A stretch of DNA of 64,000 bases, taken from positions 146,862 to 210,861 of the forward strand of contig JAZUBA010000044.1 of the NCBI GenBank assembly GCA_045638265.1, given 5' to 3'. Made by a program: the position numbers and the translations under genes. The notes beneath the pieces are model-generated. The model was given only the letters and a program-made list of their open reading frames with translations, had not been told where the DNA came from and did no database searches. The DNA is from Alphaproteobacteria bacterium (GTDB taxonomy: Bacteria > Pseudomonadota > Alphaproteobacteria > CAAHEQ01 > UBA3637). Of the stretch, positions 9,032-59,893 are shown piece by piece. The stretch's first letter is position 1. Each line of letters opens with the position of its first letter.

Positions 9032-10849
9032 TTGCAATTTGTGCAAGTAATGGTATTAAGTTTGGTTGCCACGACACAGGCTTGGTCTGCTCCGGCTACA
9101 TTAAATGATGCTGTTACGTTAAATGAAGTGCGTACAGATGCGAAAACACCGGTGGAAACAGACCCACAAACTCAAATAGATAATTATCAATATCAAATTG
9201 ATGGTAAATACGTTCTTGATCCATCAAAAGTCATTGCCAAAGGTGATTTTGATTATCTTGATAAAAACGGAGACAGAACCAATTTAGGTGCTAATGATAA
9301 TCCGGATTATGTTTTAAGTGCTTCAAATGGCAAAGATTATGATGCTGCTAAAGGTGATAAAATTCTTGAAAGCGATTATACGGTTTCAACTTCAAAAGGC
9401 AGTCTAGGATTAGATAAAATCAAAACAGATACAGATGGTAATTTAAGTAAAGACGGTTATACATATAATGGTATTTCTTTAGAAACATCAGTTTTGGACC
9501 GAATCGATAGTGGTGCTTATACATACACAGACAAAAATGGCAAAGAATATGCTTTGCAAGTTGTACAAGATGCGAGTGGTAACTATATCGGTGTTATTCC
9601 GAAAGATTTAGTCAGTGATTCGGTTGCTGTTACAAATGCAAATCAAGCATACGGCAAATTTACGCAAGACCAAACAGCATATAATGGTATTTATGAAACT
9701 TGGTCAAATGATAATGACTCATATCAAAATACTTTGAATAACTATAATGAAGATGTTGATACATTAGGTAAATATGAAGATAACTACAAAACATTTGCTG
9801 ATGCTTCAACGCAATATGGTGAATTTGCTGCTGATGAAACAAAATATGTAAATTATACTGGTTCATTGGGTGGTATCATTGATAACCGTGCTGAAACGAT
9901 TGCTAAACAAACAGTTAGTGAAGCCATTAATGGTGAATTAGAAGGTTTAGACGGTATTGTTGGTAAAGTTGATGCTAATGAAGAAAATATTGCAAGCAAC
10001 AAAAAAGCTATTGAAGAAAATGCAACTGATATTGAAACGAATACAGCCAATATTGCTAAAAATACAACTGATATTGCAACAAATACAGCCAATATTGCTA
10101 AAAATACAGCAGCAATTGATGTGTTAAATGGCGATGTTAATACGGAAGGATCTGTCAAGCATACAGTTTACAACGAAGCTCAAAATGGTAAGTACGATGG
10201 CCAAGTCTTGAATGGTTCTGATGCAACAACATTGGGTGGTGCTTTGTCGGATACAATTGGTCAAGTTAATACATTAAACGGTGATGTTAATACGGCGGGT
10301 TCTGTTCAACATACAGTTTACAACAATGCTGAAAATGCTGTATATTCAGGTACACAAGTTGCAGGTACGTCAACACGTGCAACAGCAACATTAGGTAGTG
10401 CTTTGTCTGCAACAACCGAACAGGTAAATATCAATACAGGTAATATTGCAACAAATACAGCCAATATTGAAACCAACAGACAGAATATTGCAAGCAACTT
10501 GGCAAAAATTGAAACAAACCGTCAATCTATTGCTGATTTGAGAAGTGATTTCAATGCTCAAAATGTACGCAATGAAGCTCGTTTCAGTAAAGTTGAAAAG
10601 AAAATTGAAGAAGTCAGTGATGAAATGAATAAAGGCTTGGCCTCAACGGCCGCATTAACTTCTTTGGTGCCATTATCCAGCAGACATAGAACACAGTTGT
10701 CTTTGGGTATGGGTGGTTATCGTGATAAACAAGCGGTTGCTGCCGGTGGTTACCATTATGTAGCAGGCAATGTATTGTTAAATGCAGGCGTTGCTTGGGG
10801 AGGAGATAATAGTGTATCATACAAAGCAGGTGTAACTTACGGATTCTAA
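9032..10849 (+). CDS. Trimeric autotransporter adhesin (YadA-like). The main ORF is given as in the track (TTG start); the probable true initiation is the ATG at 8998, in another frame (see findings).
   Basis: C-terminal YadA-type membrane anchor (LASTAALTSLVPL...GVTYGF). Stalk repeats NTANIAKNTTDIATNTANIAKNTAAI, seen as a 27-nt exact DNA repeat at 10040-10066 and 10082-10108. Duplicated LNGDVNT(E/A)GSV(K/Q)HTVYN modules. Confidence 0.9.
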   Translation: MQFVQVMVLSLVATTQAWSAPATLNDAVTLNEVRTDAKTPVETDPQTQIDNYQYQIDGKYVLDPSKVIAKGDFDYLDKNGDRTNLGANDNPDYVLSASNGKDYDAAKGDKILESDYTVSTSKGSLGLDKIKTDTDGNLSKDGYTYNGISLETSVLDRIDSGAYTYTDKNGKEYALQVVQDASGNYIGVIPKDLVSDSVAVTNANQAYGKFTQDQTAYNGIYETWSNDNDSYQNTLNNYNEDVDTLGKYEDNYKTFADASTQYGEFAADETKYVNYTGSLGGIIDNRAETIAKQTVSEAINGELEGLDGIVGKVDANEENIASNKKAIEENATDIETNTANIAKNTTDIATNTANIAKNTAAIDVLNGDVNTEGSVKHTVYNEAQNGKYDGQVLNGSDATTLGGALSDTIGQVNTLNGDVNTAGSVQHTVYNNAENAVYSGTQVAGTSTRATATLGSALSATTEQVNINTGNIATNTANIETNRQNIASNLAKIETNRQSIADLRSDFNAQNVRNEARFSKVEKKIEEVSDEMNKGLASTAALTSLVPLSSRHRTQLSLGMGGYRDKQAVAAGGYHYVAGNVLLNAGVAWGGDNSVSYKAGVTYGF

Positions 10850-37800: not shown

Positions 37801-38002
37801 TAATGGGGCGGGGGCAATGGCTCGTCGGGCAATTGGTTCTTCTATTTTTGGCGGATTGTTTGTTTCCTCGTTTATTGGTATTTTCTTTATTCCGGCATTA
37901 TACGTTGTTTTCCAAATTATTGTAGAACGTAAATGGAAAAAGAATAAGTCTGAAAAATTATGGGAACGTAAAAAGAAGAAACATAAAAAGCATCCTGCTT
38001 AA
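34838..38002 (+). CDS. RND efflux permease (AcrB/HAE1 family)
   Basis: [20 protein letters not shown] start, 12-TM RND architecture and the [10 protein letters not shown] motif; 1054 aa. Confidence 0.96.
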
Positions 38003-38011
38003 TTAAATAAA

Positions 38012-38050
38012 AACAGTGTCTTTTTAAATAATGAAGACACTGTTTTTTTA
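38012..38050 (+). terminator. Rho-independent terminator of the RND operon
   Basis: 11-bp stem AACAGTGTCTT/AAGACACTGTT followed by a T-run. Confidence 0.85.
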
Positions 38051-38066
38051 TTTTATTTTCAATATT

Positions 38067-38105
38067 AAAAAAAAGAAAACGAATCCAGTTAGATTCGTTT
38101 TTTTT
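38067..38105 (-). terminator. Terminator of the small OMP gene (hairpin flanked by A8 and T8)
   Basis: Stem AAACGAATC/GATTCGTTT with the U-run on the minus strand. Confidence 0.75.
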
Positions 38106-38119
38106 AATTAAATTCATTC

Positions 38120-38659
38120 TTAAAAAGAATAACGTGCTTTCAGCATTAAAATATTACTGTGGAATTTTGACGGTGAATCCCATTTGCCTCCGACTTCATT
38201 AACTTTTAAATAACGATATTCGGCGCTAAGTGTAATTGGTAATGTCGGAATGCTGAAGTCAAGTCCGGCCATTCCTTGAAATGCAGATGAATTGTTGTGG
38301 TCAAAGCGAGACATCCCGATACCGGCACCGACATAAGGATCAACAACCGGAATAAACGGAATGGTAGCATATCCATTTAAAAAAGCACCGTCAAATTTTG
38401 CTTTTTCACCATGCTTTGCATCTGCGCTAATGTGCAAATATTCTGCTTCTACGCGTGGTGAAATAAAAGGAACGGGAAATTCATATCCGACTGCGCCGGA
38501 ATAAATCGGAGAGTTTTTATAACTTGTTTCCAGAGCTTCTCGTGTGACAGAACCGTCATTAAATGAAGCACCAATGCCAAGTTGACCATACAAACCAGCA
38601 AATGCTGTTGAAGAAATAAGTATACAACCAAGTGTAGTAAGCAACAAAATTTTATTCAT
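38120..38659 (-). CDS. Small outer-membrane beta-barrel protein (OMP_b-brl/Omp25-like)
   Basis: Signal peptide MNKILLLTTLGCILISSTAFA, alternating beta-strand pattern, and a C-terminal ...KARYSF beta-signal. Confidence 0.85.
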   Translation of the reverse strand: MNKILLLTTLGCILISSTAFAGLYGQLGIGASFNDGSVTREALETSYKNSPIYSGAVGYEFPVPFISPRVEAEYLHISADAKHGEKAKFDGAFLNGYATIPFIPVVDPYVGAGIGMSRFDHNNSSAFQGMAGLDFSIPTLPITLSAEYRYLKVNEVGGKWDSPSKFHSNILMLKARYSF

Positions 38660-38764
38660 AACATATCCTTTCTGTTATTTTTTTTACATTTGAAAGCATA
38701 CAATGTAATAATTAATAAATTCTTTACAAAATTGAATCATTTTTATTGCGTTTTAAAAAGAAGT

Positions 38765-38792
38765 TTGTTATACTGTCAATATTCGTTATAAT
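38765..38792 (+). promoter_or_regulatory. Sigma70-like promoter for the DUF1013-gapR unit
   Basis: TTGTTA (38765-38770)-N16-TATAAT (38787-38792). Confidence 0.4.
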
Positions 38793-38815
38793 TTTTTTTT
38801 AAGAAAGGATAAAAT

Positions 38816-39340
38816 ATGGCACTTCCATTAATGCCGAAAGCAACGGCAGTCTGGTTAGTAGAAAATACAACTTTAACATTTAATCAAATCGCAGATTTCT
38901 GCGGCATGCATACTTTGGAAATTCAAGCAATAGCCGATGGTGATGTTGCTTCAAATATTATGGGTTTTAATCCGATTACAAACGGGCAGTTAACCGCTGA
39001 AGAAATTAAACGTTGTGAATCGAATCCTAAAGCATCATTGGAATTATTGACGAATCCTGAAATTGAACGTTTATTAAATAAAGGCTCTCGTTATGTTTCT
39101 AATGCAAAACGTAATGACCGTCCGTCAGGTATTGCTTGGATTGTGAAACATCATCCGGAAATTTCAGATACACAAATTGTTAAATTATTACGTACAACAA
39201 AAACAACAATTACGGCAATTCGTGAAAGAACACATAAAAACATTCATAACATTCATCCGAAAAATCCGGTTACATTGGGTTTGTGTTCTGAATCTGATTT
39301 GAATAAAGCTATTGCCGTTTCTGTTAAACATACAATGTAA
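38816..39340 (+). CDS. DUF1013-family conserved alphaproteobacterial protein
   Basis: MALPLMPKATAVWLVENTTLTFNQIADFCGMH... is the characteristic N-terminus of this alpha-specific family (from memory). Confidence 0.8.
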   Translation: MALPLMPKATAVWLVENTTLTFNQIADFCGMHTLEIQAIADGDVASNIMGFNPITNGQLTAEEIKRCESNPKASLELLTNPEIERLLNKGSRYVSNAKRNDRPSGIAWIVKHHPEISDTQIVKLLRTTKTTITAIRERTHKNIHNIHPKNPVTLGLCSESDLNKAIAVSVKHTM

Positions 39341-39350
39341 GGAGTAATGT

Positions 39351-39614
39351 ATGTCAGACGATATTATTCAAGAAGAAAAAGATGCTGACGGAGGTAAACT
39401 CGTTGCATATATTGAACGCATTGAACGCCTTGAAGAAGAACGGAAAGAATTAGGGGCTGATGTGCGTGAAATTTTTGCCGAAGCAAAGGGAAACGGCTTT
39501 GATACAAAAGTCATGCGGCAAATTTTAAGGTTGCGTAAAATGACACCTGCTGATCGGGCAGAAGCAGAGTTTTTACGTGACAGATATAAAAAATTATTAG
39601 GAATTGAAGAATAA
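39351..39614 (+). CDS. gapR: GapR/DUF2312 nucleoid-associated protein
   Basis: YIERIERLEEERKELGADVREIFAEAKGNGFDTKVMRQILRLRK matches the conserved GapR core; 87 aa. Confidence 0.88.
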   Translation: MSDDIIQEEKDADGGKLVAYIERIERLEEERKELGADVREIFAEAKGNGFDTKVMRQILRLRKMTPADRAEAEFLRDRYKKLLGIEE

Positions 39615-39677
39615 TACTTGATTTTTAATAATTTGGAGTATAAACTAAAAACGATAACATACTATGGAGGATAACAC

Positions 39678-40376
39678 ATGAAAAAAACATCCGTTTCTTT
39701 ATTGGCTTTGGCCGTTGTTTGTGGTACAGCCGTCTTACCGATGATTGCTGAGGCTGCTGAACAAGTTGTTTCAAGAACAGAAACGACTTATACGTCACAA
39801 AATGAACGTATTATGGACGGTTACACACCGCTTGATGAAATTGACAATTCAGTTAAAACATCAACTAAAACATATAAGATTCCTGTTCAACAACCAGAAC
39901 CACAAGTACAACCGGCTGCACAAGTAGCTCCGACACATGTACAAGGTCAACCAATTGTTATTCAACAACCGACAGGTAATTTGCCGGCAGAAATTATGGC
40001 ACAAGGTCAAATCCCAAATAATGTTTGTTCCGCAAGTGCTAATTGTCCGGCAGCAGTAACAAGTGTTTCTTACACACAATCTCCTGTAAAAGTTCAATAT
40101 CCTGTTGTTCGTCAATATCCGGTTTCAGTAGAACACGCTGTTACAGTTAATCGTGATGTAACGGTTCGTCAACCGGTTGTTGTTCAACAACCTGTTGTTT
40201 TACAAAAACCAGTTGTGGTTCATCAACCTGTTATGGTTGAACGTGCTCCGGCTTATGTTCAACAAAAACCGGTTGTTATGCAACAACAAGCTTCTTATGT
40301 ACAAGGTCAACCAGTTGTTGTTCAAGCTCCGGCAGGACAAGTTTTACCGCCTTGCACATCAGGAAATTGTCAATAA
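39678..40376 (+). CDS. Secreted Pro/Val/Gln-rich repeat protein
   Basis: Signal peptide ...LPMIAEAAEQ, then degenerate QPVVVQQPVVLQKPVVVHQPVMV-type repeats. Two Cys pairs (CSASANC and CTSGNC). Confidence 0.7.
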   Translation: MKKTSVSLLALAVVCGTAVLPMIAEAAEQVVSRTETTYTSQNERIMDGYTPLDEIDNSVKTSTKTYKIPVQQPEPQVQPAAQVAPTHVQGQPIVIQQPTGNLPAEIMAQGQIPNNVCSASANCPAAVTSVSYTQSPVKVQYPVVRQYPVSVEHAVTVNRDVTVRQPVVVQQPVVLQKPVVVHQPVMVERAPAYVQQKPVVMQQQASYVQGQPVVVQAPAGQVLPPCTSGNCQ

Positions 40377-40419
40377 GACACATTTTTTGCTTGCAAAGTA
40401 AAAAATAGTTTGATAAAAT

Positions 40420-40451
40420 AAGCTATCCCAAGTGTGGGGTAGCTTTTTTTA
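40420..40451 (+). terminator. Rho-independent terminator
   Basis: About 11-bp stem AAGCTATCCCA/TGGGGTAGCTT followed by T7. Confidence 0.75.
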
Positions 40452-40507
40452 TTTTAAAGTCAAAAACAGACTTGTTTATTAATTATCATTTTTTATTTTG
40501 AGGCTTA

Positions 40508-41161
40508 ATGAAACCAAATCAGAAGAATCGCTATAATGGGCGACACAATAACCGAAACACTCGTTCAATGATTATGCGGAATACGGTTATGGAAAGTACG
40601 GGACCAATGGGTAAAATTCATGGAACGGCATTGCAATTATCAGAAAAATATCAAGCTTATGCAAAAGATTATTTAATTCAAAATGATGTTGTTATGGCTC
40701 AAATGTGCATGCAATATGCTGACCATTATATGCGTCTTCAAAATATTGCTATCGCTAACGAGCAATCGTTACGACCTCAAAATAATAATGAACAACGCCA
40801 AAAACAAGTTGCTGAAAAAACAGAACTACAACCGACTATTTCAGAAAACATTGAAGAAACACAAGAATTAAATACGAAAGAAGAAAGTGTTTCAGAAACA
40901 AAAACAGATGAAGTTGTTGAAACGGAAACACCGTCGGAACTAAAAGAAAAGAAAGTTAAATCGGCAAAAAAACAAGCTAATCGTAAAGTTGTCAAAAAGA
41001 AAGAAAAAGAATCAGATGATGAAATGGAAATCAAGGCTGAAGATGTGTTAGGGCGTGATTTATCCGTTCCGATTGCCGTTATGCAGGAAAACAATGAGTC
41101 GCCTGTTAAGACCAAAAGGGCTACATCACGTCAACAGACAAAGCAAGCAGTATCTCAATAG
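40508..41161 (+). CDS. DUF4167-family protein (alphaproteobacterial)
   Basis: N-terminal GPMGKIHGTALQLSEKYQAYAKDY...MQYADHYMRL core typical of DUF4167, then a charged low-complexity tail. Confidence 0.8.
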   Translation: MKPNQKNRYNGRHNNRNTRSMIMRNTVMESTGPMGKIHGTALQLSEKYQAYAKDYLIQNDVVMAQMCMQYADHYMRLQNIAIANEQSLRPQNNNEQRQKQVAEKTELQPTISENIEETQELNTKEESVSETKTDEVVETETPSELKEKKVKSAKKQANRKVVKKKEKESDDEMEIKAEDVLGRDLSVPIAVMQENNESPVKTKRATSRQQTKQAVSQ

Positions 41162-41179
41162 AGAAATGGGTAAAAATAA

Positions 41180-41211
41180 AAAAGCATACAAGGATGTATG
41201 CTTTTTTTTTA
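41180..41211 (+). terminator. Rho-independent terminator
   Basis: Stem AAGCATACA/TGTATGCTT followed by T9. Confidence 0.8.
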
Positions 41212-41216
41212 TACTT

Positions 41217-41245
41217 AAAACCACCAGTAAAACTGGTGGTTTTTG
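41217..41245. terminator. Hairpin terminator usable by the convergent minus-strand 937-aa gene
   Basis: Stem AAAACCACCAGT/ACTGGTGGTTTT flanked by A and T runs. Confidence 0.6.
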
Positions 41246-41264
41246 GTATATAGATCATGTAATA

Positions 41265-44078
41265 TTAAGAAGATAAAGCACACTTGTAACCAGTGATTTC
41301 GGAATCAGCGTTTTCAATTACTTCTATTGTTCGACCGCAAACAGTCTGACACATATTTTTAGAAACTTCATCTGTTCCGATTTCTTTTGTACTTGCTTCT
41401 TCGCAGAAATAACATTTACCGTCTTTATCTTGCCACATGCCCGACGGACAATCTTCAACACACAATCCTACTAAATTGCCTTGTTCTTCAAAACCGGTTG
41501 TCATTACACGCCTGTTTTCACAACTACTGCAAAGATTTGCAATATCTGGATTAACAGGAACATTTTTCTGTGAACAAGCAACACAAGTAGCACTTGTATT
41601 GAGGAATTGTTGACCTTCTGCACATAAACCTTTTAAACAATTTCCACCTTCATAACGTCTATTTTTACAACTGGCACATTGTTCTTGAGTTGTTGTATAA
41701 GATACATCTGAATCACATCGGCGACAATAACCATCATTAGAACGATAATATACACCATTATAATCCCCTTTAATATATGCCTCAGCAGCATCTTTTATTG
41801 TGGCAGTTAGGTTTGCATCAGAATAATAATCATTACCTATATTATTACAAATACCACTAACACCTGGATTAACCAATCTACAATACGGACTCCAATAAGT
41901 ATTATCTTTTACCACCATACGATTTCCACAATCATTACACAAATTGAAAGCACCTGGAGCTGTTGTTATAAATTGTATTGCATCATCATCACCACTATTT
42001 GCTCGAGTACATGAAACACAAACACCTGTTCTTGTTTTATAATATCTGGTTGTTTCAGTATGAGGACAATCAGCCATCACACAATATCGTTGAGTTCCCC
42101 ATTCAGTTCGTAACCAATCAGATGTTCGATTAGGACATTTTTCATCACAATCACTTTTTGCATTCAAATCAATAGTGATTGAAGACGTGGTTGATGTCGT
42201 ACCACAAGTCACACATGTTCCACCTGCATTATTAATGTAATTTTCAGCGCAAACCGGACGACACACAAGACCACTCTGTTTACTATTAAAGACTTCCATG
42301 GTTAAAATTGTCCCGTTTTCATCATACTCACCATTTTCATTTTTTTTACAACGTGATTCACAGCCAGAAATATCTTCTGATACAATTGTAACACTTGATG
42401 TTGTTTTGTCACAACTTCTGCAAACATTGTCCTTTCCTAAAAACTGACCTTGTAGACAATCTTCCTTTTTTTGTTCTAAAATACAATAATCACCATCAAC
42501 TTTACGACCACATTTTGTGCATAAATTTGATAAATATTCTTTTTGATTAGAAATGTTAATATTATTTGATGTTGTGACTGTTTTGCAATCAAAACAATTT
42601 CCATTTGCATTTTGCCACTTGCGTGTACATTTTTCATCCTTTGGATTAGCTTTGCAAATTTCTATTTGTTCATCTTCGTTTACCGGTTGTTCACAAACAG
42701 GCAAACAGTATCTTTCAATGACATGACGTGGTGCAGAATCTGGACAACTATTACATTTTTCCTCAGCATACGCTCTAAAATCACTATGTGTAGAAGAATA
42801 GTTTGTCCACCATATTTGAACTCGCTGATTCCTATTATCTGAACATTTAGTGCAAGTATAAGGTGTTCCTTCCTTAATAAATTCATCATCCGCACAATTT
42901 AGTTTTTGCTGACACCAATATCCTCCTAAGTATGAACCATACCATGCGTGATTTTCTGAACACGCTAAACATTGTGCTTTTGATATAGTTTCATTTTGAA
43001 TGCTATGACGAGTCATATCACTACATGGAATACATCCTTCACTGGATGATTGATAAGAATACCCCTCAGTACACATAAAGGAACAATACCCCCGAGAGCT
43101 ATCTTCTTGTAACTCACCACGCCAACGTTTGGTTCCCGCTGCTTCACATTCTCCGCACATCGTATAACCGTCTACCTCATCACTCGTATCAGGGAACCCT
43201 TGTCCGTCTTTTAACACAAAGAAATTACTTCCGTCATCACAACTGATACATGCTCCGTTTTGACTGCGGAATGTTCCTTCCGGACATGTCTTTTTTAATT
43301 CCGTACAAGTATTATTTGATTCATCACAAATCCAACCACGTCCCTTGTGTTGACAATCTTCATTTATTTTACATTCTACACATATACCACTTGCTCGCAT
43401 ACAGAATGGTTTATCTGTTCCGACACAGGCATCACGACATGTCATTGTTTTAGGATCGCATACGGCGCCCCCACATTCCTGCGGACAATCTTCTTCATCT
43501 ACACATGGCTCTAATGCCGGTCCATTCGGATTATCGGGATCTACAATCCCACCAACTGCACCACCACCTTCGCTCAAAAATGATGTAAACACCATTTGAT
43601 TCATCGTGCCACTTTCGCCACAGATAGCAATATCTCCTGTATAGCGTGTGAGATTTTCAGAATCAACATCACCGACTTGTACAAACTTTAATCCTTTAAT
43701 TGCATCATCTAAATTTTCTTGTAGCACTTTCTGACAAACAGCACTAGGGACATCATTAACCCATGTTTTGAACGCAATCGGCGGATGAGATGTTACCCCA
43801 ATTTCAAATCCTGTTTGCGTCATTTCACCATATTCAGGAAAGGCATCTTCATCAGGTGAATCGGGTAATTCTTTTTCACCGTCTTGATATAAATGCCAAA
43901 TATCCGTGGCACGCATATTGACTTCATTGACAATATCGTTTGCCCGATGTTTATCCATGGCATACTTATATCCTTGAATACCGCCGAATGATAATACACC
44001 AATAATGGCTAAAACGCCCAATATTTCAACCATTGAGCGACCACGTTCGTTTTGTGTAACAAGTGCTTTAAATGACAT
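41265..44078 (-). CDS. Giant type IV pilin-like protein: prepilin N-terminus and small pilin-like head, followed by a ~750-aa CxxC-rich cysteine-repeat region
   Basis: GGAGG Shine-Dalgarno. Class III signal ...NERG|RSMVEILGVLAIIGVLS with Glu at +5. Gly/Pro linker GGGAVGGIVDPDNPNGPALEP. Then, by manual count, about 74 Cys including about 18 CxxC pairs (CISC, CGEC, CIPC, CTKC, CNSC, CFDC, CRSC, CVTC, CNDC, CASC, CSSC ...). Confidence 0.85.
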   Translation of the reverse strand: MSFKALVTQNERGRSMVEILGVLAIIGVLSFGGIQGYKYAMDKHRANDIVNEVNMRATDIWHLYQDGEKELPDSPDEDAFPEYGEMTQTGFEIGVTSHPPIAFKTWVNDVPSAVCQKVLQENLDDAIKGLKFVQVGDVDSENLTRYTGDIAICGESGTMNQMVFTSFLSEGGGAVGGIVDPDNPNGPALEPCVDEEDCPQECGGAVCDPKTMTCRDACVGTDKPFCMRASGICVECKINEDCQHKGRGWICDESNNTCTELKKTCPEGTFRSQNGACISCDDGSNFFVLKDGQGFPDTSDEVDGYTMCGECEAAGTKRWRGELQEDSSRGYCSFMCTEGYSYQSSSEGCIPCSDMTRHSIQNETISKAQCLACSENHAWYGSYLGGYWCQQKLNCADDEFIKEGTPYTCTKCSDNRNQRVQIWWTNYSSTHSDFRAYAEEKCNSCPDSAPRHVIERYCLPVCEQPVNEDEQIEICKANPKDEKCTRKWQNANGNCFDCKTVTTSNNINISNQKEYLSNLCTKCGRKVDGDYCILEQKKEDCLQGQFLGKDNVCRSCDKTTSSVTIVSEDISGCESRCKKNENGEYDENGTILTMEVFNSKQSGLVCRPVCAENYINNAGGTCVTCGTTSTTSSITIDLNAKSDCDEKCPNRTSDWLRTEWGTQRYCVMADCPHTETTRYYKTRTGVCVSCTRANSGDDDAIQFITTAPGAFNLCNDCGNRMVVKDNTYWSPYCRLVNPGVSGICNNIGNDYYSDANLTATIKDAAEAYIKGDYNGVYYRSNDGYCRRCDSDVSYTTTQEQCASCKNRRYEGGNCLKGLCAEGQQFLNTSATCVACSQKNVPVNPDIANLCSSCENRRVMTTGFEEQGNLVGLCVEDCPSGMWQDKDGKCYFCEEASTKEIGTDEVSKNMCQTVCGRTIEVIENADSEITGYKCALSS

Positions 44079-44126
44079 AATACCTCCAAATTATCTAATA
44101 AATTCAGTTTTTTTACATTGTAATTA

Positions 44127-44146
44127 AAGGTACGTTTAATTGCAAC
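44127..44146. repeat. Left arm of the 20-bp perfect inverted repeat (AAGGTACGTTTAATTGCAAC)
   Basis: Exact reverse complement of 44257-44276. Extends to 44124 with one 1-nt indel. Confidence 0.95.
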
Positions 44147-44183
44147 ACTTTTTTTTATATTTTTGCATTTTTTTTAATTTTTT

Positions 44184-44213
44184 TTGATTTTGGTACGTGG
44201 GCGGATTTATAAT
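44184..44213 (+). promoter_or_regulatory. Sigma70-like promoter inside the IR-bounded segment, pointing away from the pilin-like gene
   Basis: TTGATT (44184-44189)-N18-TATAAT (44208-44213) on the plus strand. I found no comparable -35/-10 pair on the minus strand of the segment. Confidence 0.5.
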
Positions 44214-44256
44214 CTTTGTCACGATTCACCCTTTTTTGATTCTTATATGCGGAATC

Positions 44257-44276
44257 GTTGCAATTAAACGTACCTT
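44257..44276. repeat. Right arm of the 20-bp perfect inverted repeat (GTTGCAATTAAACGTACCTT)
   Basis: Exact reverse complement of 44127-44146; the spacer between the arms is 110 bp. Confidence 0.95.
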
Positions 44277-44304
44277 AATATGCAACGAGAACAATGTATT
44301 TTAT

Positions 44305-44345
44305 ATAAAAAAACGGATTATCTTCATTAAAGATAATCCGTTTTA
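44305..44345 (-). terminator. Terminator of the acetyl-CoA synthetase gene
   Basis: 14-bp stem AAACGGATTATCTT/AAGATAATCCGTTT with flanking A and T runs. Confidence 0.85.
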
Positions 44346-58003: not shown

Positions 58004-59893
58004 TCAAGCTTTGGTATGTTGTTTTGATACCGGAATGGGGCATCCTGACATCCAAGCACAAACAATACCATTTAAAACTTTTCGCCTGACATTTTGAGAT
58101 GGTAGTTGAAGTGCATTATTAATAGACATAATATATGGTTCTAAATCTTTCACTTCGTAATACGAATTATCATTTAAAGATTCTCCGGACAAACACATCT
58201 CTTGAAATGTAATTGCAAACAGATATAAATCCTGCAAAATTTGAGGATTTAATTTCTCTTTGTTTTTTGATTGCTTATATTGAAATGCCGACAAAAAAAC
58301 ATCCTTATCGGGATCGTTATCTACCGATACAGTTAAAAAGGGATACATTTTTTCAAAATCTATCGGTTCATTTTGAACCGTCTTTTGATTGGGATAATAC
58401 TCATATAATCCAGTTTGATATTTTCTTTCAATATTGTCTGAAATTTTTTCAACAATGCAAAAAACTTCGCCATACATATCTTGTGCTTTTTGAGCCAAAT
58501 TTTTATCCATTTTTGTATGACACAATGTATTTCTTAATTCCACGGCATCTGCTAATTTTTTATTTTCATCTGCCGTAATCATACCTAACTTTAAAAAAAT
58601 GTTTGGTTGATTCGGGTTTAAATTTGCCTGTTTAACACAAATATCACGTAAAGCCTTTCGTGCATCCATTAAAAGAATCAACATTCTGGCACTGGCTGTA
58701 AAATCCTCTTCTTTAATTGATTGAATTTTTTGCTGAATAGCTATTTCATCTTTATTTAACAATTTAGCTAAATACTTTGACATATTCAAAACAAAATTCG
58801 TCATATAATTAATATCATTCGCACTATTTGTTTTATCACCCATTGGTCTGAAATTATATTCCATCGGATGAGCTAATTGATTGCGAATAGTCAAATATTG
58901 TTGCATCTGTTGAATTTCTGTTGTTGAAAACAACTGTTTTAATCCGTTTATTTTATTGATATCCTCAAAAACATCAGTACTATTGGCAAGTGCTGAATCT
59001 TGTTTTAATTTCTGAACAAGCATACAAAATGTTTCTATGGCAAGAATGTTAAACTGCTCCAACAAATTTTCACCTTGTCGTTTAGCATATTCCATTCTCA
59101 TTTTTTTGCTTTCTGCATCCATCATTTTTTGAGAACAATTCTTTCCGAGTTTCTGATAGATTTGTTGTGCAAAAGCAATCATATAAAACAACTTATCTGC
59201 CACAAGCTTATTCTTTGACAAATAATCAAAAAAACTTTTATCCGTTAAAAAAGTTGCACGAACCATTAAATCATCATTTATCCAAATTTGATGATATACC
59301 GGTTTTGACGGTTTTGAACGTGAAGCCAAAACACTCACTTTTTCCTGAGATGCATACAGACCTAATTGATTGGTATCCCATATTGGAAAAAACGATTCAA
59401 ATACCGTATAATTCAAACCATAACATCGTTGTCCGACCGGCACTTTTGCTTTACGATTATATAAATTAAGGCGTCCGGCAGAATCATAGGAACGAGCATT
59501 TTCTTTTTGCGAAGCCAATACAATTTCAAAATCTCCCATCAATATCGCTTTTCTAACTTCTAACTTTGCCAGACTTTTATTATCAGCAATCTGATAAATA
59601 TTATAAGATGTTTGTTTCAACAACCGCTCAACGTCCATTTCATAATATTTTTTCAGATGAGGATTCTTTTCTTGATTAATTCTTTTTTTCAATTCACCTA
59701 AATAACAACGCATTTTTTGAGCATATTTTTGGGCGCGTTCTGTCGCAATATTTAAAAACGTATCAAAATCCGTTAAATTTTGAACTAATTGATATCGTTT
59801 GACTAAATATTGATATTGTGCAAGATTATAACAAATCAAATCTAATGTTTCATCAACATTTATTGATGGCGTTGTATTGTTTTGTTGCTTCAT
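58004..59893 (-). CDS. Hypothetical 629-aa protein with two HEPN-type RNxxxH motifs (tandem HEPN-like, putative RNase)
   Basis: TIRNQLAHPMEY (R337-H342, nt 58868-58885) and VELRNTLCHTKMD (R454-H459, nt 58517-58534). Each is preceded by a helical segment, as in DUF86/HepT HEPN domains. The ~330-aa N-terminal region is unrecognised. Confidence 0.55.
   Translation of the reverse strand: MKQQNNTTPSINVDETLDLICYNLAQYQYLVKRYQLVQNLTDFDTFLNIATERAQKYAQKMRCYLGELKKRINQEKNPHLKKYYEMDVERLLKQTSYNIYQIADNKSLAKLEVRKAILMGDFEIVLASQKENARSYDSAGRLNLYNRKAKVPVGQRCYGLNYTVFESFFPIWDTNQLGLYASQEKVSVLASRSKPSKPVYHQIWINDDLMVRATFLTDKSFFDYLSKNKLVADKLFYMIAFAQQIYQKLGKNCSQKMMDAESKKMRMEYAKRQGENLLEQFNILAIETFCMLVQKLKQDSALANSTDVFEDINKINGLKQLFSTTEIQQMQQYLTIRNQLAHPMEYNFRPMGDKTNSANDINYMTNFVLNMSKYLAKLLNKDEIAIQQKIQSIKEEDFTASARMLILLMDARKALRDICVKQANLNPNQPNIFLKLGMITADENKKLADAVELRNTLCHTKMDKNLAQKAQDMYGEVFCIVEKISDNIERKYQTGLYEYYPNQKTVQNEPIDFEKMYPFLTVSVDNDPDKDVFLSAFQYKQSKNKEKLNPQILQDLYLFAITFQEMCLSGESLNDNSYYEVKDLEPYIMSINNALQLPSQNVRRKVLNGIVCAWMSGCPIPVSKQHTKA

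Follow-up and report, generated by a model that had tools for sequence, protein, structure and literature searches.

Modular pilins, such as PilB and PilC of Streptococcus sanguinis, join a small pilin module with a class III leader through a short linker to a bulky non-pilin module, believed to be displayed for adhesion at the tip of the pilus, and the extreme size quoted for them is 860 aa (Raynaud et al., 2021; PMC8179133). In gut Bacteroides, invertible promoters operate at multiple loci, namely those for capsules, where the serine recombinase Mpi does the flipping (PMC10403206). Both phenomena are thus known already, as is the choice of the type IVb adhesin PilV by DNA inversion. Here we describe a gene of a gut alphaproteobacterium that bears likeness to each of these systems. 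It lies in a 64-kb window (the whole stretch of DNA analyzed, 64,000 nt of contig JAZUBA010000044.1 in assembly GCA_045638265.1) and encodes a 937-aa protein with the layout of a modular pilin, namely a pilin-like head (residues 1–170), a Gly/Pro linker (171–191), and a Cys-rich module (192–937). We consider it probable that the product is a phase-variable modular type IVb pilin, and probably a tip adhesin. The fold of the repeat may be new, and the switch system, which is found genome-wide in this uncultured gut lineage, is undescribed.

The 937-aa protein contains 76 Cys (8.1%). Two of these, C115 and C153, fall within the first 191 residues and the other 74 in residues 192–937, an exact fit to the manual count of about 74 given in an earlier note on this DNA that was made from the letters alone. 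The approximately 18 CxxC pairs reported there were likewise counted as 18, and seven GxCxxC motifs were found. Three of the four recurring C-x-x-C-x-N-R strings that the note listed hold as such (CNDCGNR, CASCKNR, and CSSCENR), and the fourth, CTKCSDNRN, has one extra residue. By comparison, the other 47 open reading frames (ORFs) of the window have a mean Cys content of 0.97%, with a maximum of 2.6% for any single protein, and include five CxxC motifs in 18,785 residues. The Cys composition of the protein is far outside this local background.

Pilin-like N-terminal module and its family

The protein starts with MSFKALVTQNERG/RSMVEILGVLAIIGVLSFGGIQGYKYAMDKHRAN, where the slash marks the predicted cleavage point. 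The junction of leader and mature part, MSFKALVTQNERG/RSMVEILGVLAIIGVLS with Glu at +5, is the class III leader that the earlier note described, and in its wider sequence context (MSFKALVTQNERG/RSMVEILGVLAIIGVLSFGGI) it shows a hydrophilic leader, Gly at −1, and then a mostly hydrophobic stretch with the Glu at +5. In an alignment of 83 full-length homologs, G13 (−1) and E18 (+5) are invariant. The logo N-E-x-G/R-S-M-V-E-[IM]-L-G-V-L-A is present in 197 of 236 family proteins, among which the median leader length is 13 residues and the +1 residue is Arg in 189. Mean identity across the family is 85% for residues 14–35 and 76% for residues 36–64, and drops to 27% in the linker, the least conserved segment, which lies where the earlier note had placed a Gly/Pro linker.

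AlphaFold2 run on the family alignment gave a model with a predicted local distance difference test score (pLDDT) of 87.9 and a predicted template modeling score (pTM) of 0.71, in which a 48-residue helix (residues 17–64) is followed by a sheet with strands at 92–98, 102–111, 130–137, and 159–167. The two Cys that the earlier note had assigned to a pilin head, C115 and C153, are invariant and sit within this predicted pilin fold. When the whole model was compared with the PDB by Foldseek, matches were confined to the pilin head. The top match was a type IVb pilus subunit of enterotoxigenic Escherichia coli (ETEC; 9iuf_A, E 1.3e-3, probability 1.0, TM-score 0.46 normalized to the target), and the second best was the type IVb pilin TcpA (3hrv_B). 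Sub-threshold matches to N_methyl, NF007800, and NF007862 (prepilin peptidase-dependent) were in register, with E ∼1e-3 for the NCBIfam models. A tblastn search of the pilin head against plasmids gave non-significant matches only (E 0.9–9), mostly to annotated pilin genes and chiefly lngA; the family profile found nothing significant among PDB sequences, with pilin N-termini at E 0.3–2; and a literature search for the leader string GRSMVE returned no match. From sequence and model together we conclude that a pilin module of the type IVb kind, atypical in its +1 residue, makes up the N-terminus, and the conserved junction suggests that it would be cleaved by a prepilin peptidase.

Full-length relatives (110) come almost only from metagenome-assembled genomes (MAGs) of Alphaproteobacteria from human, ruminant, rabbit, and other guts, and every relative for which the source gives a name is called “hypothetical protein.” An exhaustive profile search recovered 5953 cluster representatives at E ≤1e-3, of which 4246 were at E ≤1e-10; among the best 150 of the 5953, many have only the leader and head in common. 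In the loci fetched, the proteins behind the leader range from 115 aa (two Cys, pilin-sized) to 1633 aa (112 Cys), and pilin-sized paralogs of 115–200 aa with two to four Cys carry the same leader. Single genomes are rich in such genes; nine contigs of MAG SIG53 alone carry at least 18. Paralogs sharing the leader, which the earlier note thought worth a search, thus proved numerous in the lineage.

The evidence on pilus machinery and peptidase comes from related contigs and MAGs, not from this organism's own genome. Two related loci, L084 (1696–11125) and L085 (600–10035), carry an operon of orf363, TcpQ, a secretin, PilO (PF06864, the R64 thin-pilus family), orf340, a 704-aa T2SSE ATPase, and a T2SSF platform protein, a gene set that by its sequence matches is of the type IVb pilus kind. 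A pilin gene is absent from this operon. T2SSE and T2SSF genes also lie 8 kb upstream of the closest homolog of our protein (70% identical), on the same contig (L081), and T2SSF has >1100 relatives at 65–94% identity in MAGs of the lineage. A 234-aa Peptidase_A24 ORF was found in another MAG of the group (54.7 bits, motifs DxxxxLLPD and GAGDVKM); its family, of 228–236 aa, comprises 165 homolog clusters, one of which is named prepilin peptidase. The earlier note had let its reading of the leader hang on such a peptidase, and in the lineage, as seen on related contigs, both a peptidase and type IVb machinery are present. No methyltransferase domain was matched in the 234-aa protein, and an A24 peptidase of this form would fit the non-canonical +1 residue. 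Two other genes were observed at these loci: a TrbC/VirB2-type pilin gene just upstream of the L084/L085 operon on the opposite strand, and, directly after T2SSE/T2SSF in L081 (2161–4980), a gene for a 939-aa protein that has no leader, few Cys, and no Pfam match.

In the course of events that we propose, the 13-residue leader ending in Gly would be removed by the short A24 prepilin peptidase, and the alpha-1 helix with Glu+5, together with the small disulfide-bonded head, would seat the protein in a pilus of the type IVb kind. The building of this pilus would fall to a machine of secretin, TcpQ, PilO, ATPase, and platform which, to judge from the related contigs, may be encoded elsewhere in the genome. 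Given the bulk of the rod that follows the head, a place at the pilus tip as an adhesin appears most likely.

The same N-terminus could instead act in the manner of a pseudopilin, as an inner-membrane anchor or T2S-like targeting signal, with a rod that is periplasmic, released, or surface-displayed and never enters a filament; the many paralogs would then be surface proteins that are exported and have no more than the sorting signal in common. We think this unlikely. The strictly kept Gly−1 and Glu+5 and the 85% identity of alpha-1N are what filament packing and a peptidase would demand, not what a simple anchor would, and the head has a predicted pilin fold whose best matches are type IVb pilins. 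The presence of leader and head on thousands of proteins with unrelated C-terminal parts does resemble a sorting signal, yet pilin-sized paralogs able to form a shaft exist among them. Family genes lie outside pilus operons, and the same Cys-rich repeats also follow Sec signals (P0199 and P0218), so the rod needs no pilin; nevertheless, the only type IV filament machine that was found has a secretin and PilO/TcpQ, which is the type IVb pilus kind.

Cysteine-rich module and its predicted disulfides

The loosely periodic modules of ∼50–60 aa that the earlier note perceived are ten true repeats of 47–98 aa, typically ∼60 aa. BLASTP self-comparison of the Cys-rich region detected no repeats, and profile-profile comparison was needed to reveal them: by hhalign, all 45 repeat pairs are homologous, with probabilities of 82–98%. 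The unit reads G-x-C-x-x-C … C-x-x-C-(x)-N-R … Y-C-x(3-10)-C. A Cys knot at residues 192–265, between the linker and the first repeat, is unrelated to the repeats. Nearly all Cys are invariant or almost so, the other residues of the repeats have a mean identity of 29%, and the surface of the rod appears hypervariable.

Homologs that lack a Cys lack it together with a particular second one. Such co-loss was seen for the second and fourth Cys of a repeat (352/373, 412/445, and 498/523), for the sixth Cys of a repeat with the first Cys of its successor (541/553, 610/622, and 877/889), and for the pairs 475/484 and 202/207. Because Cys are missing only in defined pairs, we take the paired residues to be disulfide partners. 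This would give a C2–C4 bond in each repeat, a C6(i)–C1(i+1) staple joining consecutive repeats and, by elimination, probably a C3–C5 bond. Bonded in this way, the C-terminal 750 residues would form a rigid rod of ten six-Cys repeats.

The pattern of loss also bears on whether the Cys might bind metal, in zinc-ribbon or CXXC-like sites, instead of forming disulfides, an arrangement that one might expect of an anaerobe whose oxidative folding is weak. Many of the 18 CxxC pairs lie on beta-hairpin knuckles; one repeat aligned weakly to a CXXC5 zinc finger in a profile search (E 0.33), and scattered zinc-ribbon Pfam models each matched a single member. None of the zinc-type matches is significant, however, six Cys per repeat cannot supply whole Cys4 sites, and Cys are lost in specific pairs and not in fours, which is the signature of disulfide partners. 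The CXXC5 lead was rejected on this pairwise co-loss. The domain would moreover lie outside the cytoplasm, behind a pilin head that keeps its usual two-Cys pair, and we consider metal binding improbable.

A separate model of five repeats reached a pLDDT of 89.3. Foldseek found nothing significant for it, the best matches being at E 1.5 in the PDB and E 0.027 in BFVD (viral models); an ephrin-receptor-like viral protein (E 0.27) and Pfs25 (E 1.5) were non-significant structural hints. The full protein had no Pfam match at E up to 10, and Pfam searches with 16 repeat regions yielded only marginal matches to single members, such as DUF4215 (E 0.0095) and the scattered zinc-ribbon models. With no relative in Pfam, NCBIfam, PDB, or BFVD searches, the Cys-rich module appears to be an undescribed repeat family, and its fold is possibly new. 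A match to a well-described bacterial domain family, which the earlier note would have counted against itself, did not turn up in these profile and structure searches. The note's description of a eukaryote-like ectodomain did not carry over: all tests for eukaryotic Cys-repeat families were negative, in Pfam and in structure comparison, and the resemblance to furin-like, variant surface protein (VSP), or ephrin-receptor repeats is at the motif level only, either convergent or too remote to show.

The same Cys-rich repeats were also observed behind ordinary Sec signal peptides, in P0199 (818 aa, 94 Cys) and P0218 (2262 aa, 225 Cys). We therefore regard the rod as a module in its own right, to which pilin heads became joined by grafting.

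Upstream element and genomic setting

The earlier note had mentioned a switch-like element upstream of the gene. It consists of two 28-bp palindromic sites (Table 1) and a segment between them that is inverted relative to the related loci L081 and L083. By BLAST, the orientation of the window switch relative to the adjoining gene is opposite to that in L081/L083, and the + strand of the window segment, antisense to the gene, aligns with the gene-sense strand of L081/L083 at 83% mean column identity. Some ∼29 family genes have the same paired element, at ∼220 and ∼90 bp ahead of their leader motif, and both states occur among them. The sites of SIG53 and RGIG7750 are imperfect, which makes the states distinguishable, and the inner half-sites are swapped and reverse-complemented between states exactly as crossover at the palindrome center predicts. 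Likewise, two tandem genes of L076 are in opposite states: their flanks match directly at 94% identity, whereas for the inner 158 bp the match, at 95%, is in reverse. On these alignments, the upstream element is an invertible promoter element, and inversion of the 111-bp segment between the 28-bp palindromes would make expression phase-variable.

In ∼22 genes the proximal site reads [CA]GGGAA-N17-TA[CT]ACT. Five genes, the window gene among them, have TTGCAA-N17-TACA[ACG]T instead, immediately preceded by an A-tract block. The −35 of the TTGCAA-N17-TACAAT layout occupies the inner half of the proximal site and the −10 its fixed outer half. One state would thus set the A-tract block, and in the sister genomes also the TTGCAA −35, beside the fixed −10 TACAAT. 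In SIG53 and RGIG7750 the −35 is present in the minority state only; since this state completes the −35/−10 pair and adds the A-tracts, it is taken as ON. For the window switch, which is in state B, we lean toward ON on the same sequence features. A second promoter-like sequence, TTGATT-N18-TATAAT, lies within the segment; if it drove the gene, the window would be OFF. It was ranked second because, although kept in L081, it is not conserved in L083 or in SIG53-type switches.

That the palindromes are operators for a dimeric repressor or activator, for example one looping over 140 bp in conventional regulation, was our first reading, and the near-perfect palindromy of each 28-bp site, the spacing of 140 bp (∼13 helical turns), and the lack of a recombinase gene in the window would suit it, but it was rejected once the inner segment proved reversed and is now highly improbable, as the inter-site sequence occurs in both orientations relative to conserved flanks and genes and the inner half-sites are exchanged and reverse-complemented in sister genomes, which operators do not do.

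In a MAG from rabbit gut, a 201-aa serine recombinase (Resolvase and HTH_7; L022, 15337–15939) is encoded ∼5 kb away from a gene with the leader and represents a candidate for the type of invertase that could act on the 28-bp palindromic sites. Other recombinase matches were Xer-like tyrosine recombinases in L004, L021, and L030 and a fragment-like resolvase tblastn match in L019. In L076 (12776–15671), L045, L049, and L002, two to four genes with the leader stand in tandem, and every one of them has a switch to itself.

The genes themselves are mosaic. Between P0001 and the window protein, identity amounts to 88–91% in the first 265 and the final 115 residues but to only 45% in repeats 4–6, and P0002 has the reverse pattern. 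Across P0001, P0002, and P0018, either the ends are near-identical and the central repeats divergent, or the opposite. The 5′ 470 nt including the switch are 85% identical to those of the L083 gene, and beyond the pilin head protein identity is only 30–56%. Patterns of this kind suggest segmental exchange or recombination among family paralogs.

The features of the locus are collected in Table 1. The gene is bracketed by the two terminator hairpins listed there, and is therefore considered monocistronic. Its neighbors are housekeeping genes: Pfam scans identified DUF4167, GapR, and TrcR genes and an outer-membrane beta-barrel protein on one side, and ADP-forming acetyl-CoA synthetase and TrkH on the other. 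A 1337-aa ORF on the acetyl-CoA synthetase side is taken to be AsmA-like, and another neighbor, on the DUF4167 side, is presumably an RND efflux pump, both judged by eye.

Table 1. Features of the pilin-like gene and its surroundings, with positions in the window.
Feature	Positions	Strand	Remarks
Whole coding sequence, modular pilin-like protein	41265..44078	-	937 aa plus stop codon, ATG start; 110 homologs
Ten tandem six-Cys repeats, residues 266–937	41268..43283	-	From hhalign; small two-Cys insert at 465–484
N-terminal Cys knot, residues 192–265	43284..43505	-	13 Cys; hhalign probability <5% against every repeat
Gly/Pro-rich linker, residues 171–191	43506..43568	-	Read from sequence; lower pLDDT
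Globular pilin head, residues 65–170	43569..43886	-	Predicted four-stranded sheet; invariant C115/C153 pair
Alpha-1 helix, residues 14–64	43887..44039	-	Invariant Glu+5 (E18), hydrophobic alpha-1N; AlphaFold2 helix 17–64
Leader peptide, residues 1–13 (MSFKALVTQNERG)	44040..44078	-	Ends in invariant Gly−1
Shine-Dalgarno GGAGG	44083..44087	-	4 nt 5′ of ATG; read from upstream sequence
Promoter-like TTGCAA-N17-TACAAT toward the gene	44117..44145	-	9/12 matches; overlaps proximal site
Proximal 28-bp palindromic inverted-repeat site (TTGTAATTAAAGGTACGTTTAATTGCAA on + strand)	44118..44145		Expected by chance 0.00
Predicted invertible segment, ∼111 bp	44146..44257		A-tract block beside −35 here (state B)
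Promoter-like TTGATT-N18-TATAAT inside the segment	44184..44213	+	10/12 matches; points away from the gene
Distal 28-bp palindromic inverted-repeat site	44258..44285		
Terminator hairpin of upstream acetyl-CoA-synthetase-like gene	44310..44344	-	Would shield the switch from read-through
Bidirectional terminator hairpin 3′ of the pilin-like gene	41178..41207		

Along the window as a whole, GC skew stays positive as far as ∼38 kb and has turned negative by ∼40 kb (window 38000–44000), and gene orientation converges at the change, being mostly + before 41 kb and mostly − after it. The pilin-like gene therefore lies at this inflection, which is possibly the replication terminus region. Elsewhere in the window, a 557-aa protein with strong Ank-repeat matches (59908–61581, −) and a 246-aa ankyrin-repeat protein (6846–7586, +) are encoded, and two further ankyrin-repeat proteins adjoin the closest homolog in L081 (7005–9754); these are proteins of the eukaryote-interaction type in a gut alphaproteobacterium. 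Next to the first of the ankyrin-repeat genes lies a 629-aa ORF of no Pfam family (58004–59893, −). The window also encodes a 605-aa trimeric autotransporter adhesin with a YadA-like membrane anchor (9032–10849, +) and a 232-aa secreted protein without a Pfam match (39678–40376, +), in which Pro, Gln, and Val abound and QPVVV-like strings recur.

Assessment and comparison with known systems

The earlier note had concluded that the gene encodes a phase-variable, disulfide-dense surface or pilus-tip protein. The first two parts gain support from the inversion of the switch and from the Cys covariation, which backs disulfides, and the tip location is an assignment that we share as a probable one. 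A number of results weigh against a phase-variable modular type IVb pilin, and we set them out together. Regarding the pilin itself, Arg at +1 is atypical for prepilin substrates, the full-length protein matched no pilin model in Pfam or NCBIfam, and the first 70 aa scored 14.3 bits against PF07963 (N_methyl), below the cutoff of 21.2; NF007800 likewise stayed below threshold on this segment, reaching 19.5 bits where the cutoff is 158 (E 7e-4). We found no experimentally studied precedent for a 937-aa tip subunit. Family genes occupy unrelated chromosomal sites, singly among housekeeping genes, unlike those of CofB, TcpB, and PilV. The protein thus falls short of each of the known pilin families on one count, with curated hidden Markov models (HMMs) below threshold in one case and a gene outside a pilus operon in the other.

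Regarding machinery, tblastn with T2SSE, T2SSF, secretin, PilO, TcpQ, and A24 peptidase queries from the related contigs gave no match anywhere in the 64 kb of the window. Nor did Pfam, used on 30 of the window's other ORFs, reveal a pilus gene, the ORFs at ∼11.5–30.6 kb being covered by tblastn only. The earlier note had likewise seen no pilus assembly genes there. Taken over both kinds of search, the window yielded no pilus, peptidase, recombinase, or Dsb gene, and no recombinase was tied to the 28-bp sites. Regarding the switch, both orientations were seen across paralogous and homologous loci and not as heterogeneity at this locus, TTGCAA stands at the proximal site in both states in the window's species, which leaves the ON and OFF assignment uncertain, and the better-scoring promoter-like site in the segment (10/12) faces away from the gene.

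A wider reading would make the family a bacterial counterpart of protozoan variant-surface-protein systems, with dozens of scattered genes per genome for pilin heads that each bear a different disulfide-stapled rod, built from a novel repeat fold, and serve one machine as interchangeable, mosaic, recombining tips. Many of the genes would be gated by their own copy of a conserved inverton that moves the −35 and an A-tract UP element beside a fixed −10, and the tips could serve host or partner attachment, or immune or phage evasion. We put this forward tentatively, as an idea that may well not hold in full. The phase-variable modular type IVb pilin would in itself already have the consequence that, with many scattered genes per genome, each with its own switch, a cell could vary the tip or surface protein it shows.

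If this is true, modular pilins extend to proteins of ∼1000–1600 aa with an undescribed disulfide-rich repeat, which domain-based surveys miss because the leader lies below curated thresholds. Multi-locus promoter inversion, best known from Bacteroides capsules, would also occur in gut Alphaproteobacteria, where it would control pilin-like proteins by a variant mechanism in which the −35 and the upstream A-tract move and the −10 is fixed. An uncultured lineage that is widespread in human, ruminant, and rabbit guts would gain a testable surface-variation system. The repeat, with a confident model and no structural neighbor, would be a good target for structure determination, and a rigid disulfide-stapled rod is possibly useful for protein engineering.

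Compared with the modular pilins (PMC8179133), the bulky module here can be placed in no recognized domain family, and the length of the protein exceeds the 860-aa extreme. Its leader falls below the IPR012902/PF07963 thresholds, so that domain surveys would miss it, and carries Arg at +1, and the family is present in many copies per genome, many with their own DNA switch.

CofB (ETEC CFA/III), TcpB (Vibrio cholerae), and PilV resemble our protein in having a type IVb-like head and a large C-terminal part that is an adhesin (here a probable one), and the machine of the lineage contains PilO (of the R64 family) and TcpQ. A further parallel is found in PilV of IncI plasmids with a shufflon, where DNA inversion decides which adhesin is shown (PMC9045228). 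In contrast, CofB, TcpB, and PilV are encoded in pilus operons and measure 420–520 aa, whereas the gene here stands alone among housekeeping genes, and the C-terminal parts share no sequence similarity. The shufflon, in addition, rearranges coding segments of one gene by means of a tyrosine recombinase, whereas here a promoter segment would flip before many complete genes.

Giardia VSPs, ciliate surface antigens, and furin-like and GCC2_GCC3 repeats share with our protein a very high Cys content with frequent CxxC, the string C-[PA]-x-G-x-[FYW]-x(4-6)-G-x-C-x-x-C, and, as systems, a large variable gene family with switchable expression. They differ in that neither the full protein nor the 16 repeat regions matched VSP, furin, or GCC repeats in Pfam, with no significant structural match either, in that the protein here has no C-terminal membrane anchor, and in that its own six-Cys unit has a helix that carries the second CxxC.

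The switch itself has a parallel in the gut Bacteroides, which belong to another phylum and in which capsule operons, not pilin-like proteins, are controlled. The 28-bp palindromes are a further difference, as is the apparent movement of the −35 and A-tracts beside a fixed −10 in the sister genomes. A literature search with the Bacteroides inverted-repeat consensus gave no match, and we claim no likeness to Mpi sites. What the two share is the design: many unlinked surface loci in one gut bacterium with short invertible promoters and shared inverted repeats that allow combinatorial variation (PMC10403206), with most copies apparently in one (OFF) state.

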